Assembly: GCA_964482735.1 (NCBI GenBank)
Contig: CAYZYV010000004.1
Coordinates: 65,737 to 129,736 of the forward strand
Reading direction: 5' to 3'
Source of the DNA: an uncultured Candidatus Saccharibacteria bacterium
GTDB lineage: Bacteria > Patescibacteriota > Minisyncoccia > Phycocordibacterales > UBA9973
Length of the DNA stretch: 64,000 bases
Positions 13,231 through 62,831 of the stretch are shown here, piece by piece. Positions within the stretch are counted from its first letter, which is position 1; each line of letters starts with the position of its first letter. Both the position numbers and the translations under genes were made by a program. The notes beneath the pieces were generated by a model. The model did not search any database. It saw only the letters and a program-made list of their open reading frames with translations, and was not told the origin of the DNA.

Positions 13231-13279
13231 AAAACAGTAAGACCCAAATATCTTCATATCTGGGTCAAACTGTTTTATG
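13231..13279. terminator. Bidirectional terminator hairpin
   Basis: gtaaaacagtaa-gaccca-loop-tgggtc-aaactgtttta nested inverted repeats. Confidence 0.5.
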
Positions 13280-13280
13280 T

Positions 13281-13397
13281 GATCCCGGCAGGAATCGAAC
13301 CTGCATCATAACTTCCGCAAAGTTACGTCCTATCCCCGCCCGACTGGAACGACCACTAATCTTGTCCAGTCGTTCGGGCGGGCATTGAATGACAACG
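13281..13397 (-). pseudogene. Partial tRNA-Arg-like copy (D-arm to 3' end, lacks 5' acceptor strand) carrying a 48-nt GC hairpin insert in the D-loop
   Basis: Anticodon arm TAACT-TTGCGGA-AGTTA, T-arm GCAGG-TTCGATT-CCTGC, and 3' CGGGATC-A. Insert 13336..13383 ccgcccga...tcgttcgggcgggc. Confidence 0.5.
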
Positions 13398-13401
13398 CTT
13401 G

Positions 13402-13473
13402 TGCTCTCAGTAGGAATCGAACCTACATCATAACTTCCGCAAAGTTACGTTCTATCCATTGAACTATGAGAGC
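13402..13473 (-). tRNA. tRNA-Arg (anticodon GCG as read from the loop)
   Basis: Perfect cloverleaf on the minus strand: GCTCTCA-TA-GTTC-AATGGATA-GAAC-G-TAACT-TTGCGGA-AGTTA-TGAT-GTAGG-TTCGATT-CCTAC-TGAGAGC-A. Confidence 0.75.
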
Positions 13474-13706
13474 AACTTATTTTTTAAATATTTTCGACCA
13501 GAAGCGGTCTTCCAATATTTTTCTTTTTCTACTGCCTCTTTCAGGGTTGAACACTTTTCAAAATAAACTAAGTCAAACGGAGCATAATGCTTGTTGGACT
13601 TTGTTATTTTACTATTATGTTCAGACAGTCTCTTTTCTAGATTTGAACAGAAACCTTTATAGTAAAAGTCTAAAAATTTACTTTTTATGACATATACATA
13701 ATACAT
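13464..13706 (-). CDS. Mini GIY-YIG nuclease domain protein (80 aa)
   Basis: YVYVIKS...YYKGFCSNLEKRLSEHN is a GIY-YIG core. The start codon lies inside a partial tRNA copy and the stop overlaps the tRNA-Arg 5' end. Confidence 0.7.
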   Translation of the reverse strand: MYYVYVIKSKFLDFYYKGFCSNLEKRLSEHNSKITKSNKHYAPFDLVYFEKCSTLKEAVEKEKYWKTASGRKYLKNKLLS

Positions 13707-13783
13707 AAGTTACATCCTATTCCCGCCCGACTGGAACGACTACCAATCTCGTCCAGTCGTTCGGGCGGGCATTGAATGACTGG
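13700..13783 (-). repeat. Second partial tRNA-Arg-like fragment (D-arm to anticodon stem) with the same 48-nt hairpin insert
   Basis: agttacatcctattc + ccgcccgactggaacgactaccaatctcgtccagtcgttcgggcgggc + attgaatgac; the insert is at 13717..13764. Confidence 0.5.
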
Positions 13784-13868
13784 ACCATTGAAGTTAATTT
13801 ACACTATCAAACCAATTATCGCAAGCCGATAACAAAAAAGGCTGGCTTAAGCCAGTCTTTTTTGTTAT

Positions 13869-32143: not shown

Positions 32144-32216
32144 GGTGCCTATAGTGTAATGGTTAGCACAAGAGTCTGTGGATCTCTTAGTCAGAGTTCG
32201 AGTCTCTGTAGGCACC
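32144..32216 (+). tRNA. tRNA-His (anticodon GTG) with encoded G-1
   Basis: The extra 5' G pairs with discriminator C. Anticodon loop CTGTGGA, T-arm CAGAG-TTCGAGT-CTCTG. Confidence 0.8.
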
Positions 32217-32253
32217 CACACCTATATTTTTATAGTCGTAAATCATATATAAT

Positions 32254-32514
32254 ATGTATATGTTTTATTTCTATGTGTTAAAAAGTAAAAAAGATAATAA
32301 TTTGTATTTTGGCTCTACAAATAATTTACGACGCAGGCTTTTAGACCACAACAGTGGTAAAGTAAACTCTACTCGTCCTAGATTACCATTTGAGCTTAAA
32401 TATTATGAAGCTTATTCTAATGAAAATGATGCCAGAAAGAGAGAAGCTTCAATTAAGAAAGATGGTCGAGCTTTATCTGTGTTACGGAAAAGAATAAGCC
32501 AAAGCCTGCAATAA
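32254..32514 (+). CDS. Mini GIY-YIG nuclease domain protein (86 aa) inserted at the 3' flank of tRNA-His
   Basis: FYFYVLKS...YFGSTNNLRRRLLDHN GIY-YIG core. It is flanked by a 12-nt duplicate of the tRNA-His 3' end (tgtaggcaccca at 32205..32216 and 32530..32541) and by the inverted cccacacc/ggtgtggg motif. Confidence 0.7.
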   Translation: MYMFYFYVLKSKKDNNLYFGSTNNLRRRLLDHNSGKVNSTRPRLPFELKYYEAYSNENDARKREASIKKDGRALSVLRKRISQSLQ

Positions 32515-32610
32515 AAAAATGGGTGTGGGTGTAGGCACCCAGCGTGAAATTTCTAAATAATATCTTTGTGCAGCTTGGTAGATTTAGTTCTACTCTGATA
32601 TACTTTTTAT

Positions 32611-33309: not shown

Positions 33310-33909
33310 ATGAAATACAATGATTTTACCCTAGGACAAATTGAAGCAGTTTTAAACAAACTAGGTGGAATAGAAGGCGTAATGGACTTTCTTTCTGGCA
33401 AAACTATTGTGAAGGTTCCATCGGATGAAAAAACCTTGTTCAATGTATGGAAAACTATTAAACTCGGCAATTACAAAAATGCCGATGAGTTTCGTAAGGC
33501 ACTCAAAAAAAATGGTTTCAAAACCGGCGACTGGGCAAACGACATCCTCGACAAACCCGCATTTACAGTAGCTGGAGCAGAAGAAGAAATCCAGTTGGTG
33601 AATGTTTCAGTAGCTGACCTTGGTTTCAAAAACGGTGCCACTTACAAGGGTATCTGTGCTAAAGCCAAAGAACTTGGCTTGGAACTTTGTCCCAATGAAG
33701 TCGGTCCACAATTGCGTTTGCAATACAAAGACCAGCCCAAGGGCGAACACCTGTGTATTGCAATGGAACCAATTACCGACTCGTTTGGCAACCTCAGCAT
33801 CTTCCACGTTGGACACGATGACGATGTTTTGTGGCTCTATGGCTACTATGGCTATTCTGTCCCTTTCTGGAGTGCTTACTACCGTTTTGTTTTCCGTCTT
33901 CGCAAGTAG
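33310..33909 (+). CDS. DGR1 variable (target) protein; C-terminal variable region
   Basis: The last 136 nt (VR1, 33772..33907) match TR1 with about 17 mismatches, all but one of which lie at TR adenines. Confidence 0.75.
   Translation: MKYNDFTLGQIEAVLNKLGGIEGVMDFLSGKTIVKVPSDEKTLFNVWKTIKLGNYKNADEFRKALKKNGFKTGDWANDILDKPAFTVAGAEEEIQLVNVSVADLGFKNGATYKGICAKAKELGLELCPNEVGPQLRLQYKDQPKGEHLCIAMEPITDSFGNLSIFHVGHDDDVLWLYGYYGYSVPFWSAYYRFVFRLRK
33772..33907 (+). repeat. DGR1 variable repeat (VR1)
   Basis: Aligned to TR1 34267..34402. TR A maps to VR G/C/T at about 16 sites, including AAC-type codons. Confidence 0.8.
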
Positions 33910-34266
33910 CACTTGGACCTTGTTTACTTTGGTCTCTTTTGACCCTTTGGACTTTGTCCTTAAAAAAGTTTTTGAAGTATCACACAACCTCTATGACCCC
34001 TGTATAATTAAAAAAACAGGGGTTATTTTTTTGTGCTAAAATAAATATGGTAGTAGGTGAATATGTGGAAGATTAAGGTTTTCCGCTACCGAACCCAGTA
34101 TCCATACATCGAGAGTATTTGCGACCACGGTTTCAAATAGAGTGATGTATGTAGAAACTTCAAAAAATGAAGATACTTGGTGTAGAAAGCTGGGTGATTT
34201 TATATCACGAATAAGGTTCAACCCCGAGAGTATTCAAAGGGTGGTGGGTTAGATGGCTTACTATAC

Positions 34267-34402
34267 ATTACCGACTCGGATGGCAACCTCAACATCTTCA
34301 ACGTTGAACACGATGACGATGATTTGTGGCTCAATGGCAACAATGGCAATTCTGTCAATTTCTGGAATGCTAACAACCGTTTTGTTTTCCGTCTTCGCAA
34401 AT
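34267..34402 (+). repeat. DGR1 template repeat (TR1)
   Basis: Noncoding 136-nt copy of VR1 that keeps adenines where VR1 varies. Confidence 0.8.
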
Positions 34403-34424
34403 CTTTTCATTTCTCTCTCACTAT

Positions 34425-34748
34425 TTATTTGGGAGAGTTTTGTTTTATAAGTTGTCCATTCCAACCACCAAGTATTTTGCCTATCTCATCTATCCCTGCA
34501 GAAAGAGTAATATATTTTTTATCATCTAATGCTTTAATTTCCCATAGAACCATCAAAAGTATTTTTAAGGTGTCTGTTTTTCTTATCGCTAGTCGGACCC
34601 ACGGAGGTTTTTCTTCTCTAGATAAAAAACTAGCAATAGAAATTGCTTCTATAATTTCCACAAAGATAGTATCAATTTTTTGTCCTAGAGAGTGTTTGTG
34701 TATTTTAGGCAGAGTTTGGTAAAAAGTAATCCAAATTAGATAAGTCAT
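34425..34748 (-). CDS. avd: DGR accessory variability determinant (Avd-like four-helix-bundle protein), divergent from RT1
   Basis: 107 aa from the internal Met. The C-terminal GIDEIGKILGGW resembles the bAvd EVGRILGSW region. It lies between TR1 and RT1. Confidence 0.6.
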   Translation of the reverse strand: MTYLIWITFYQTLPKIHKHSLGQKIDTIFVEIIEAISIASFLSREEKPPWVRLAIRKTDTLKILLMVLWEIKALDDKKYITLSAGIDEIGKILGGWNGQLIKQNSPK

Positions 34749-34776
34749 TTTTGCTTTTGCCAGTAGGGGCAAAAGC

Positions 34777-34787
34777 GGGGGGGGGGG
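34777..34787. repeat. G11 homopolymer in the 52-nt avd1/RT1 divergent intergenic region
   Basis: ggggggggggg sits 14 nt upstream of the RT1 ATG and 29 nt upstream of the avd1 ATG, and it is unusual in an AT-rich genome. Confidence 0.7.
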
Positions 34788-34800
34788 TAAAATCATTACT

Positions 34801-35805
34801 ATGTCTCGTATACAATTTAGTCATACATATCAATATATCATTTCTACTGAAAATCTCCTCCTTGCTTGGAAGGAGTTTTTGAAAGGCAAAAAATCAAGGA
34901 AAGATGTTTTAGAGTTTGAAAGAAACTTGATGACTAATATCTTAAAACTTCACAGCGAACTCTCAAATAAAACATATAAACATTCTGATTACCAAGCATT
35001 TGATATATCTGACCCTAAACCACGAAGCATACATAAAGCAAAAGTGCGGGACAGATTACTTCATCACGCACTCTATCGCGAACTTTATCCATTTTTTGAT
35101 AGAACATTTATAGCCGACTCATATTCTTGTAGGAAAAATAAGGGAACGCATAAAGCAATGCGGAGGTTTCGGGTGTTTTCAAATAAAGTATCAAAAAACA
35201 ATACAAAAACTTGCTGGGTTTTGAAGGGTGATATACGAAAGTTTTTTGGGTCAATAGACCAGGAAATACTTGTTGAAATAATTAAAGAATATATTTATGA
35301 TAAAGATATAATTTCGTTATTATTTGAAATTATTGTAAGTTTCCAATCTACAAAAAAAGATGTTGGGTTACCTCTTGGCAATTTAACATCACAAATACTT
35401 GTGAACATTTATATGAATGAGTTTGACCAGTTTGTAAAACATAAACTAAAAGCAAAATACTATATTCGTTATGCCGATGATTTTGTTATTATGTCTGACA
35501 AAAAAGAATGGCTTGAAAACTTATTGCCACAAGTAGCAATTTTTCTTGAGATACGGCTCAAATTATTGCTTCATCCAGACAAGGTTTTTATAAAAACTCT
35601 TGTCTCTGGAGTTGATTTTCTCGGGTGGGTCCATTTTCCCGACCATCGGATAGTAAGAACCATAACTAAACGCAGAATGTTAAAACATATTAGACAAAGG
35701 GAAGGCAAAAAAGAAACGGTCCAGTCCTGTCTTGGGCTCTTAAGCCACGGTAATGCGAAGAAACTTTCTAACTCAATAACTATGAAATATGTAATTGAAA
35801 AATAA
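34801..35805 (+). CDS. DGR reverse transcriptase (RT1)
   Basis: RT motifs with the DGR-typical LPLGNLTSQ (SQ rather than QG) and YADD (RYADDFVI). Only 334 aa, with no maturase or endonuclease domains. Confidence 0.85.
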   Translation: MSRIQFSHTYQYIISTENLLLAWKEFLKGKKSRKDVLEFERNLMTNILKLHSELSNKTYKHSDYQAFDISDPKPRSIHKAKVRDRLLHHALYRELYPFFDRTFIADSYSCRKNKGTHKAMRRFRVFSNKVSKNNTKTCWVLKGDIRKFFGSIDQEILVEIIKEYIYDKDIISLLFEIIVSFQSTKKDVGLPLGNLTSQILVNIYMNEFDQFVKHKLKAKYYIRYADDFVIMSDKKEWLENLLPQVAIFLEIRLKLLLHPDKVFIKTLVSGVDFLGWVHFPDHRIVRTITKRRMLKHIRQREGKKETVQSCLGLLSHGNAKKLSNSITMKYVIEK

Positions 35806-42516: not shown

Positions 42517-42591
42517 TACCACTCTATAAAAATAGTTTGACCATGAGCCTTTTAGACCACACAGCTTGGATTCTAGAAGGTTTTTTGTATT

Positions 42592-42645
42592 AACAGCCGA
42601 GGTCGGACCTCGTACGAGGTCCGACCTCGGCTGTTATCCACAGGT
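42592..42645. repeat. GC-rich REP-like perfect palindrome (44 bp) plus conserved atccacaggt tail; second copy at 62584..62654
   Basis: aacagccgaggtcggacctcgtacgaggtccgacctcggctgtt is a perfect inverted repeat. Confidence 0.6.
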
Positions 42646-42781
42646 ACACCCCCACACCCATATTTTTATCATTCTGTTTACAGAATTTAATCACATAGCT
42701 TTTACCTTATTTAAACATACAGTTTTTTGTATCTTGTTTTAATATGTTTTTTAAAAACAATAAAAATATAGGTGTGGGGGT
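42646..42781. mobile_element. Miniature inverted-repeat element (no ORF) related to the GIY-YIG/tRNA-His insertion, directly upstream of pilin-like gene 2
   Basis: IRs acacccccacacccatat / atataggtgtgggggt flank a ~100-bp AT-rich segment. The IR matches the cacccacacctatat motif at the tRNA-His/GIY-YIG junction. Confidence 0.4.
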
Positions 42782-42804
42782 AAAGATTATGTTATAATAA
42801 AAAA

Positions 42805-43593
42805 GTGAAAAACAAACTCTTAAAATCAGATAATAAAACTACAGGGTTCACTTTAATTGAACTCTTAGTCGTTATCGCAATCATTGGAATTTTATCAGCC
42901 GTAGTTGTCGCTTCGCTAAACAGTGCAAGAGAGAAAGGAAAGATTGCTTCTATTAAATCCACCTTAAAACAACTATATAACCAAGCAGCCATCAATCAAG
43001 CAGAATATGGTAGTTTTGCAAACTCTAATACATCATATTCAGATTTAACTTGTACAGGCCCAGGAGGTAATCTAGCTAAAATAGCTCAACCACTCATTGA
43101 TCAAGGAATTATAGTTAAATGCTTTAGTTTTAATAGTCCGGCATCTGGAGATTTGTCCCTTCGCTTTGCTGCAACCGCTCTTATATATGATACAAATGAA
43201 CTCAAAGCATGGTCAGTAGATGAAAACGGTGTAGTTAAATGGGATACTCATGGAGTTAATACTGATGGGACAACAAGATCAACAGATATAACCATGGCAT
43301 GGAAGGACCTAAATGATATCACTATAGCTATGAACGCTTGTGCGAAAAATGGTGGTCGTCTTCCTTCTGTGGAACAATTTCGAACCCTGTTTCATTCATG
43401 GTACTCATCTACTGGCAATGTGTCATATCTTCCAATACCAACAGAAGGTTCTTTTTCAAATGGTTACTACTGGTCATCAACTTCTGTACCGCTTTGGCCA
43501 GAGACTAGATCATATTCTTTGATCACAGAGAGCTCAAATATAGGATTCTCTGGTTCGTTGAGTTCTGGTTATTATGTCCGTTGTGTTAGATAA
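42805..43593 (+). CDS. Type IV pilin-like protein with C-terminal lectin/FGE-like DGR-target-type domain (paralog 2; no cognate TR found)
   Basis: GFTLIELLVVIAIIGILSAVV prepilin motif; C-terminal GGRLPSVEQ...YYWSS...GYYVRCVR. Confidence 0.7.
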   Translation: MKNKLLKSDNKTTGFTLIELLVVIAIIGILSAVVVASLNSAREKGKIASIKSTLKQLYNQAAINQAEYGSFANSNTSYSDLTCTGPGGNLAKIAQPLIDQGIIVKCFSFNSPASGDLSLRFAATALIYDTNELKAWSVDENGVVKWDTHGVNTDGTTRSTDITMAWKDLNDITIAMNACAKNGGRLPSVEQFRTLFHSWYSSTGNVSYLPIPTEGSFSNGYYWSSTSVPLWPETRSYSLITESSNIGFSGSLSSGYYVRCVR

Positions 43594-62583: not shown

Positions 62584-62654
62584 AACAGCCGAGGTCTTTC
62601 CTCGTACGAGGTCGGACCTAGTACGAGGTCCGACCTCGGCTGTTATCCACAGGT
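62584..62654. repeat. Second copy of the GC-rich REP-like palindrome, with an internal expansion
   Basis: aacagccgaggtc-[tttcctcgtacgaggtcggacctagtacgaggtccgac]-ctcggctgttatccacagg. Confidence 0.6.
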
Positions 62655-62831
62655 GGTCCGAGAAAACTTGTTTTGGAGCATTAAAAACAGTAGGGCCTAG
62701 ATTTTTCTTGGTTTGACAATACCATATAAATATGCTATACTATATATAGTGTAAGTTCTTTACAAAGAAGGTATTAAATTGTTCTCACAGGTTCTTTTTA
62801 GAGGTTGTGAAAACAATTTAATACTGATGTT

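Follow-up and report, generated by a model that had tools for sequence, protein, structure and literature searches.

The 64,000-nt window analysed here (contig CAYZYV010000004.1 of an uncultured Candidatus Saccharibacteria bacterium; G+C content 33.9%) contains two short segments bounded by the same inverted repeats: a cassette carrying a small GIY-YIG nuclease gene at the 3' end of a tRNA-His gene, and a segment without open reading frame (ORF), named element B, upstream of a pilin gene. Their features are all given on the forward (+) strand, in positions of the window. The tRNA-His(GTG) gene was located at 32145-32217 by ARAGORN (61.3 bits with the Rfam tRNA model at 32145-32216), with G-1 at 32144. 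Its positions 66-69 are the left copy of a 4-bp target-site duplication, TAGG (32209-32212), followed by the left terminal inverted repeat CACCCACACCTATATTTTTAT (32213-32233), which was detected by repeat search and is kept in all homologous cassettes. Then come a short untranslated leader containing the 5' arm of stem 2 (GTCGTAAAT, 32235-32243) and the nuclease gene (32260-32514), which encodes a single catalytic domain. Three other stem arms are localized in codons: the 3' arm of stem 2 (ATTTACGAC, 32324-32332, paired with 32235-32243) within Asn-Leu-Arg-Arg, the 5' arm of stem 3 (GCAGGCTTT, 32333-32341) within Arg-Arg-Leu-Leu, and the 3' arm of stem 3 with which it pairs (AAAGCCTGC, 32501-32509) within the C-terminal Lys/Gln-Ser-Leu-Gln. 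The right terminal inverted repeat ATAAAAAAATGGGTGTGGGTG (32511-32531), the right TAGG duplication (32532-32535) and the displaced original 3' tail of tRNA-His, CACCCA (32536-32541), end the locus. The full element (32213-32531) has 319 bp and is filled by one gene, the stop codon of which is inside the right repeat. Its two arms, of 21 nt each, are 90% complementary.

An earlier note on this DNA had described an 86-aa GIY-YIG ORF bounded by the tRNA-His 3' end and by repeats, and all these features are found where it placed them. The ORF 32254-32514 indeed matches Pfam GIY-YIG (PF01541, E=1.4e-16, residues 3-73 of 86), but the true start is probably the second ATG (32260), i.e., a protein of 84 aa, since this is the length called on identical contigs and seen in almost all homologues. 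The duplication of the tRNA terminus has also to be modified. The inverted pair and the 12-nt direct repeat TGTAGGCACCCA (32207-32218 and 32530-32541) are present, the latter in only two copies in the window against 0.08 expected, but only about 4 bp of it are a true target duplication. The 12 nt are made up of TG (the last 2 nt of the terminal repeat), TAGG (the target duplication) and CACCCA, which is the displaced tRNA tail in the right copy and the start of the terminal repeat in the left one. The junctions read ...CTCTG-TAGG-(CACCCACACC...GGTGTGGGTG)-TAGG-CACCCA-GCG, with the element in brackets. An uninterrupted tRNA-His end reads ...CTCTGTAGGCACCCAGCG, and the empty sites would be GAGTCTCTGTAGGCACCCAGCGTG for the cassette and TTATCCACAGGTAMAAGATTATG for element B.

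The first 6 nt of the left terminal repeat mimic the tRNA-His 3' end. The last four acceptor-stem/discriminator nucleotides of the tRNA (32213-32216, CACC) are supplied by this repeat. The element would have entered the acceptor stem between G69 and C70, duplicating 4 bp (TAGG). The tRNA stays intact because the terminal repeat starts with CACCCA and rebuilds its 3' end (positions 70-73), and the rebuilt tRNA-His scores as a normal tRNA with Rfam. The Rfam scan of the window gave only tRNAs and no other known RNA family.

Element B is composed of a left terminal repeat (ACCCCCACACCCATATTTTTAT, 42648-42669), an AT-rich interior of 90 nt without ORF (42670-42759) and a right terminal repeat (ATAAAAATATAGGTGTGGGGGT, 42760-42781). 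Its 22-nt arms are 95% complementary; the earlier note was right in seeing there the same inverted-repeat signature as around the cassette. Between its end and a type IV pilin-like gene downstream (42805-43593, GFTLIEL prepilin motif) there are 23 nt. The flanks are TACA on the left (42645-42648 when the repeat is started at CC) and TAAA on the right. The interior has no similarity to the GIY-YIG ORF and forms two hairpins, ATTCTG-TTTA-CAGAAT on the left (42671-42686) and TGTTTTT-T-AAAAACA on the right (42746-42759). Element B is about 70% identical to the elements of four loci from other genomes (L034, L083, L084 and L093; 124-132 nt), against 60% for shuffled controls, and the subterminal hairpins are common to all.

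The terminal repeats of both elements, of about 21 nt, have a conserved outer core (C/A)C-CCCACACC. Their shared end consensus, CCCACACCYATAT, is found in 4 copies in the 64 kb, solely at the four arms, against 0.02 expected from shuffles. It is thus not a frequent low-complexity sequence, as the earlier note had considered it might be, and related cassettes are found elsewhere.

All of the 11 loci first examined contain homologous GIY-YIG genes bracketed by the same repeats. L001 (80% identity, other neighbour genes) has the layout of the window, i.e., tRNA-His, cassette, then GTGTAGGCACCCA; in L002-L011 (74% identity) the cassette is away from tRNA and has a perfect 21-nt bracket. At least 539 relatives were obtained in a protein-guided scan of metagenome contigs. 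CCCACAC/GTGTGGG-type cores, with one mismatch allowed, are present on both sides in 79 of 116 cassette copies (60 distinct), down to 51% identity. The outer 10 nt or so, (A)CCCCCACACC, are conserved, and the inner AT-rich half is clade-specific yet still complementary. The most distant proteins have variant cores (e.g., CCCTCAC... and CCGCACAC...). The earlier note had proposed to look for further inverted-repeat pairs, and these are numerous: an exact scan for CCCACACCYATATTTTTAT in one genome per species gave 83 stretches, almost all from Patescibacteria, with pairs dispersed in the related genomes. Contig LBRL01000001 (704 kb) alone has at least 10 of them, and AWSN01000001 is among the other contigs with several. 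Many copies are at non-homologous sites within one genome, and two are in the 64-kb window. The motif has no match in the viral contigs of IMG/VR, and a viral origin was thus rejected.

Three size classes can be distinguished: (i) a short class of 59-69 nt (about 40 elements) without ORF; (ii) a medium class of 117-135 nt (about 25 elements), also without ORF, in which element B falls with 128 nt from core to core; (iii) the cassettes, of 310-315 nt, with the GIY-YIG gene. The short class keeps the left leader of the cassette, TATAGT(C/T)GTAAAC..., and its right end, ...CTGCAATAAAAATAT, which encodes Leu-Gln-stop. Since both cassette ends are retained, including these codons, the short class corresponds to internal deletions of the cassette. 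The earlier note had proposed that element B is a derivative of the GIY-YIG element, of the type of the MITEs, i.e., miniature transposable elements with inverted repeats. The shared terminal repeats and the overall fold agree with this, but the interior of element B does not derive from the GIY-YIG ORF, and the true derivatives are the elements of 59-69 nt. Decaying copies are present in L026 and L044. Nested or tandem copies, or flanks ending in another terminal repeat, are present in L048, L114 and L117.

The examined loci were also inspected for larger elements between such repeats: none above about 0.5 kb combines matching flanks with an ORF of transposase size. No recognised transposase class (DDE, HUH, Ser/Tyr recombinase) is present in the element, the GIY-YIG domain being its sole ORF. 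The existence of an element family and its insertion anatomy can be stated with high confidence. We give a probability of about 0.6 to the reading that the cassette and element B form one family of very small insertion sequence (IS)- or MITE-like elements of Patescibacteria, in which element B is a non-autonomous member with the same terminal repeats, a similar flank signature and a different, non-coding interior. This family is apparently undescribed so far, as the literature searches did not turn up any prokaryotic GIY-YIG element described as having terminal repeats and target duplications.

Some particular copies must be mentioned. Tandem or direct arrays of left ends, each after the same flank octamer (GGGTTTACC or GGGCTTGCC), occur in L040 (4160-4370), L054 (100-1480), L056 (3700-3950) and L091, which suggests repeated insertion at one site or unequal recombination. 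In L043 (1257-1767), a cassette at a tRNA end measures 511 nt, and some 200 nt of additional GC-rich palindromic sequence separate its GIY-YIG gene from the terminal repeat, as a nested small element. At many left junctions a flank octamer (e.g., GGTTGACC or GGCTTGCC; TAGGCA at the window cassette, 32209-32236) is localized 16 nt upstream of the conserved left-end TATAGT. The two could be a -35/-10-like pair, i.e., a hybrid promoter made by insertion, with a scan score at chance level. The promoter-like sites in and around both window elements are likewise at chance level in the promoter scan.

The flanks of the 79 non-redundant elements repeat directly, left versus right, at one register only. 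The central 4 of 8 flank positions match in 75-84% of the elements and the outer positions in 30-56%, about 50% being expected by composition. The matches amount to 5.16 of 8, against 3.31 for shuffled partners (maximum 3.65), and the cassettes alone agree. The two core-adjacent bases of one side complement those of the other (96% and 91%), i.e., CC/GG, CA/TG, CT/AG or TC/GA, and thus belong to the terminal repeat. The best model is a terminal repeat starting from CC (or CA) and a 4-bp, sometimes 5-bp, duplication YWWR. The preferred target, ggYWWRcc, forms a palindrome, and a C-run lies further out (47, 37, 29 and 29% C). Resemblance to the terminal repeat is seen in about 7% of the outer flanks, compared with 1.3% of random sites; in L048, L114 and L117 the right flank continues with CCCC(C/T)ACACC. 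A target duplication of 8 bp was rejected on the low match of the outer positions and because five tRNA-His cassettes differ at positions 1-2. A flank belonging to the element was also rejected, since flanks differ between copies within one genome (LBRL01).

A DnaA-box-like sequence, TTATCCAC(A), overlaps the junction in 8 of the 79 elements, against 0.22 expected. We read it as a probable preferred target, TTAT|CCACA being the duplication plus a repeat-like start. Element B is 3-4 nt from such a site. The loci concerned are the window (42634-42642), L002, L015, L017, L040, L049, L078 and L084. L017 is within the first kb of a 704-kb contig, and a link of the junctions to replication origins is possible.

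A tRNA boundary is overlapped by 2-5 nt in 15 of the 60 distinct cassettes. The 3' ends used are those of tRNA-His (8 cases), tRNA-Phe and tRNA-Leu (2 cases), and the 5' ends those of tRNA-Trp, tRNA-Glu and tRNA-Ala (2 cases). Relative to the ORF, occupied tRNA-His genes occur in both orientations, L019 and L041 being the reversed cases. The far side is always TG-TAGG-CACCC(A/T), and the remnant TGTAGGCACCC(A/T) follows the cassette in L001, L019, L023, L037 and L041. Occupation both ways with a constant far-side remnant thus points to separate insertion events at the same site. TAGG is also present at six other tRNA-His cassettes, with variation in the 2 nt to its left, which follow the T-stem of each tRNA (ga, ag, tc, tg). 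The small mobile cassette that the earlier note had placed at the tRNA-His 3' end is well in line with this double occupation and with the same ends being carried by the homologous cassettes. The right end of the L183 cassette is directly at GAGGAAAGTCCG, presumably the conserved 5' region of RNase P RNA; the ends of structured-RNA genes other than tRNAs may also be used.

The 32 short elements that were aligned have an outer stem of 22 bp, 95% paired, a stem 2 (GTTG/CAAC), 81% paired, and a stem 3 (GCAGAC/GTCTGC) with compensatory changes at 6 of 6 pairs. This covariation of stem 3 is reached by 0 of 500 shuffles, and slid registers drop to 40-59% pairing. In the full cassettes of the clade at 64% identity or more, the same inner stems 2 and 3 form over long range, and the arms are then coding sequence (Leu-Arg-Arg-Arg-Leu and Ser-Leu-Gln-stop). 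The covariation of cassette stem 3 is synonymous: GCAGAC/GTCTGC, GAAGAC/GTCTTC and GCAGACTGG/CCAGTCTGC, with for instance CGC...CTG versus CGA...CTT. The stem 2 arms of the cassettes are complementary to their own partner over 6.2 nt, against 4.5 nt for mismatched partners. The DNA fold calculated for 32205-32541 is a three-way junction (-51 kcal/mol, z=-6.5), and that of element B is an outer stem with two hairpins (z=-6.3). Cassettes and short elements are thus predicted to fold as single strands into the same three-way junction. In this model the two halves of the ORF would in effect be the loops of two hairpins, and the short elements the same junction minus the loops.

The protein itself is under purifying selection (median dN/dS, i.e., ratio of non-synonymous to synonymous substitution rates, of 0.12). 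Tyr5, Tyr16, Arg24-26, His30/Asn31 and Glu62 are conserved, the catalytic Tyr, Tyr, Arg, His and Glu being invariant in 29 aligned homologues, and the C-terminal SLQ is nearly invariant in the family alignment. Between the window and L001, the synonymous sites are near saturation (proportion of synonymous differences, pS, 0.70), yet the first (left) 37 nt of the element are identical; the element ends are thus constrained. The genes of the window agree with an origin in Patescibacteria (CPR). The closest named homologues are from metagenome-assembled genomes of Nomurabacteria and Paceibacteria, and homologues at 58-100% protein identity are present in many metagenomes. In an HMMER search of 1.84 billion cluster representatives (clusters at 50% identity), 642 clusters reached E<=1e-10. 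No NCBIfam model is specific to the window protein (TIGR01453: 19.9 bits for a cut-off of 56), and the matches in PDB are only UPF0213 structures (1ywl and 1zg2, E=1e-5).

Among known systems the nearest is Ssn, i.e., 94-aa single-domain GIY-YIG nucleases that are hairpin-guided and site-specific and cut single-stranded DNA (ssDNA) only, beside the hairpin repeat NTS/SRM (Chenal et al. 2025, PMC11893778). The ssn genes are flanked by their own repeats, and the authors of that study noted an IS-like look and a parallel with RAYT/REP (PMC11893778). Their survey covered RefSeq representatives and has no mention of Patescibacteria, tRNA or duplications (PMC11893778). The cassette resembles Ssn (SsnA of Neisseria meningitidis, cd10448) in that the protein is a single GIY-YIG domain of about 85-95 aa with Tyr, Tyr and Glu at the same positions (aligned with Y6/Y17/E64), and in that the gene is bracketed by inverted copies of a genome-dispersed repeat folding as a single strand, i.e., an IS-like architecture. 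Membership of Ssn is defined by BLASTP to the N. meningitidis SsnA (E<1e-10, coverage of at least 75%) or by cd10448 as top CDD hit (PMC11893778). The reference used here was the N. gonorrhoeae orthologue (L187, 589-873; 94 aa, Y6/Y17/E64, seven flanking NTS). The window protein has 29% identity with it (37 bits, 68 of 94 residues), with E=1e-9 that holds for a two-sequence comparison only. A hidden Markov model (HMM) of 5 Ssn-type proteins gives it 35-45 bits, versus 148-167 for members. The SRM regular expression, HGTCWYN(0-2)YYVSBRHN(0-5)WNVSBRGN(0-2)RNCYNB, has no match in the whole window, against 7 around the N. gonorrhoeae ssnA and 3 around a Rhizobium homologue. Membership of Ssn was thus rejected. 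There are also differences in layout: here the gene is inside one long hairpin between half-sites, whereas the ssn gene is between two complete hairpins. The 4-bp duplication, the deletion derivatives and the insertion at tRNA ends with mimicry are unreported for Ssn, and the hosts of the family, Patescibacteria, are outside that study.

The nearest named and structured relatives are the UPF0213 proteins (B. subtilis YazA, E. coli YhbQ; cd10456), with 42% identity and 48.5 bits for YazA. The UPF0213 HMM gives 46-54 bits for the clade of the window, versus 155-173 within the group. Unlike the cassette, yazA has no flanking repeats in the four Firmicutes loci examined and is there in a fixed housekeeping operon between the tRNA m6A methyltransferase gene (trmN6) and rsmI, a context which is absent at the cassette. 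From these scores, the Patescibacteria proteins would form a third clade, separate from Ssn and UPF0213. The gene order tRNA1(Val) m6A37 methyltransferase-yazA-rsmI was seen in four Firmicutes genera (L188, L193, L194 and L195), and this tRNA/rRNA-modification context may hint at an ancestral role of the mini GIY-YIG proteins.

Other systems are similar in part. In REP/REPIN with RAYT (TnpA-REP) and in IS200/IS605, a usually single-copy gene is between inverted palindromic repeats, doublets populate intergenic DNA, and recognition of folded single-stranded ends would be a shared principle. However, those enzymes are HUH/Y1 transposases with covalent intermediates and the present one is a GIY-YIG hydrolase. 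Moreover, IS200/IS605 make no target duplication, which is present in the window family. Bacterial MITEs such as the Neisseria Correia elements are also short, bounded by terminal repeats, ORF-free and intergenic, with several size classes and a short target duplication, but here the sole coding relative is a 0.3-kb GIY-YIG cassette and not an IS with a DDE transposase. GIY-YIG homing endonucleases of the I-TevI type share the catalytic domain, whereas the window protein (84 aa) has this domain only, with no DNA-binding domain and no intron. Integrative elements targeting tRNA genes also insert at or in a tRNA gene, repeat the tRNA end and keep the tRNA functional; the cassette differs from them by its size (319 bp), by the absence of an integrase, and in that the terminal repeat, not an att core, restores the tRNA. 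By the features tested on sequence, the system would resemble Ssn/SRM or RAYT/REP in layout and be a member of neither.

Mobility of the family is suggested by the dispersed copies and their flanks, and the following mechanism can be proposed by analogy to Ssn, RAYT/REP and IS200/IS605. One strand of the element would fold into the three-way junction, in which the terminal repeats pair as the outer stem and two hairpins lie inside. This fold would be what the GIY-YIG nuclease recognises, with a cut at the outer stem's base. Being specific for the C-run/CCCAC end, the nuclease would also select GGG-YWWR-CCC targets, which would be why tRNA ends, the DnaA-box-like TTAT|CCACA and the ends of resident copies are hit. 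GIY-YIG nucleases hydrolyse DNA and cannot religate it, so that joining would need host repair or ligation. Our confidence that the nuclease is the mobilising enzyme is moderate to low. In its strongest form, this reading makes the cassette an autonomous prokaryotic DNA transposon of about 315 bp, with an 84-aa GIY-YIG nuclease as sole protein, moving via a folded ssDNA three-way junction, spawning MITE populations in genome-reduced CPR bacteria and, through a terminal repeat that mimics acceptor ends, using tRNA genes as safe harbours. This form is put forward tentatively, with odds of somewhat better than one in three.

Several points weigh against mobility by this enzyme or against the family as such. 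As there is no religation, the GIY-YIG protein does not by itself make up a full transposase. DDE transposases such as those of the IS5 family likewise leave 4-bp duplications at palindromic YWWR targets, and an enzyme of this kind encoded at another place in the genome could act in trans. It is equally possible that the folds are those of RNA, and the alignments do not discriminate between RNA and DNA. The flank tetranucleotides of element B match at 3 of 4 positions only. No empty site or presence/absence polymorphism was found in the loci and contigs examined, and these loci were selected by motif or by protein. The cassette is in 22 of 22 contigs of the source species (look-up by the NUDIX neighbour), and the contigs covering the site of element B (look-up by pgk) end in a neighbouring palindrome, with no empty site. 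Look-ups by the pilin and HIT neighbours gave no empty site either, the records being absent or the contigs too short. The empty tRNA-His site that the earlier note had proposed to look for in relatives was not seen: 8 of 8 distinct tRNA-His genes in the examined loci are occupied, in a sample biased by the choice of the loci.

This fixed presence agrees with a domesticated, Ssn-like system, in which the hairpins would be recognition sites of an ssDNA nuclease kept by the host, the cassette would be fixed and vertically inherited, and the transposon anatomy would be a relic. The nuclease would trim incoming or replicating single strands, e.g., modulating natural transformation in bacteria that scavenge DNA by means of pili. 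Neisseria SsnA with NTS does exactly so, and the NTS-ssnA-NTS locus is IS-like (PMC11893778). The cassette fixed at tRNA-His in all contigs of the source species and at 8 distinct tRNA-His genes, the purifying selection on the protein, the position of element B next to a type IV pilin gene and the decaying copies of L026 and L044 all go in the same direction. But the occupation of tRNA-His both ways needs more than one insertion event, the nested or tandem copies of L048, L114 and L117 point to repeated insertion, and the protein is outside the Ssn clade with no SRM motif in the window. We hold this explanation to be rather unlikely, at about one chance in five; it is compatible with past mobility and differs on present function only. 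Somewhat less probable again is a conventional transposon family of DDE type with its transposase elsewhere, all short elements including the cassette being MITEs mobilised in trans and the GIY-YIG gene being cargo, e.g., a selfish retention nuclease. The 4-bp duplication in a palindromic YWWR and the sharp terminal repeats are classical signatures of such enzymes, several unrelated interiors have the same ends, and LBRL01 and AWSN01 have many ORF-free copies with no cassette in the 8-kb blocks examined, an absence that is unproven since only these blocks were seen. On the other hand, the examined loci contain no larger bounded element with a transposase-sized ORF, and none bounded by CCCCCACACC-type repeats. 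In addition, the ORF fills the element, with its stop codon in the repeat and its codons forming conserved stems, and the repeat sequence changes alongside protein divergence.

For element B in particular, the earlier note had also suggested a promoter segment bounded by inverted repeats or an invertible switch of the pilin gene. Segment 42648-42781 is indeed AT-rich, bounded by inverted repeats and 23 nt upstream of this gene. However, the best -10-like sequence for the pilin gene, TGTTATAAT (42792-42800), is not in this segment, where the promoter scan gives chance-level scores only; the promoter segment is thus not retained. As to a switch, the same bracket encloses a protein gene and more than 100 unrelated intergenic segments elsewhere, no recombinase gene is found nearby, the interior has not turned round relative to the flanks between the orthologues L034 and L083, and one orientation only is seen in the window. 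A regulatory switch unrelated to insertion, invertible or simply bounded by inverted repeats, is therefore highly improbable.

We know of no prokaryotic DNA transposon with an enzyme of the GIY-YIG type. Should the nuclease be what spreads the family, it would be a new transposase class for bacteria and the cassette the most compact autonomous element so far, i.e., with about 315 bp, the smallest self-encoding mobile element known. The family would also provide many tiny nucleases, different from Ssn, that are structure-guided and sequence-specific, and Ssn/SRM would be recast as one branch of broader mini-GIY-YIG selfish or domesticated elements. About 640 protein clusters are concerned, which are currently annotated merely as "GIY-YIG nuclease family protein". 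Such 84-aa structure-guided nucleases with co-varying recognition sequences could widen the ssDNA toolbox proposed for Ssn. The family also shows nucleic-acid structure constraining synonymous codon positions, and terminal repeats rebuilding tRNA ends as a way to persist in highly reduced genomes.

Other features of the window are worth recording. A GC-rich perfect palindrome, CAGCCGAGGTCGGACCTCGTACGAGGTCCGACCTCGGCTG, is localized at 42591-42645 and 62586-62655, each copy being followed by TTATCCACAGGT. The first copy adjoins element B, and it is within this copy that assemblies of the source species break. The palindrome may represent a terminator or a repeat family of its own.

A second mini GIY-YIG gene, unrelated-looking, encodes 80 aa on the reverse strand (13706-13464, within 13279-13790), with 39 bits on the Ssn HMM and 37 on that of UPF0213. 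Its stop codon overlaps the 5' end of tRNA-Arg(GCG) (13473-13401). A GC-rich, hairpin-forming direct repeat of 74 nt (13707-13780 and 13320-13393, 93% identical) brackets the gene and the tRNA, and a weak second tRNA-Arg (13350-13279, 31 bits) repeats the 3' 58 nt of tRNA-Arg(GCG). This locus has the look of a further GIY-YIG/tRNA insertion, with repeats of another type. The most distant homologues (L163, L166, L168 and L172) are flanked by similar GC hairpins and tRNAs.

Finally, a diversity-generating retroelement is present at 33310-35800, according to Pfam calls from identical contigs. Its variable region (33772-33905) is the 3' end of a gene of 199 aa and its template repeat is at 34267-34400 (134 nt, 89% identical). 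A bAvd gene (34425-34796, reverse strand) and then the reverse transcriptase gene follow.

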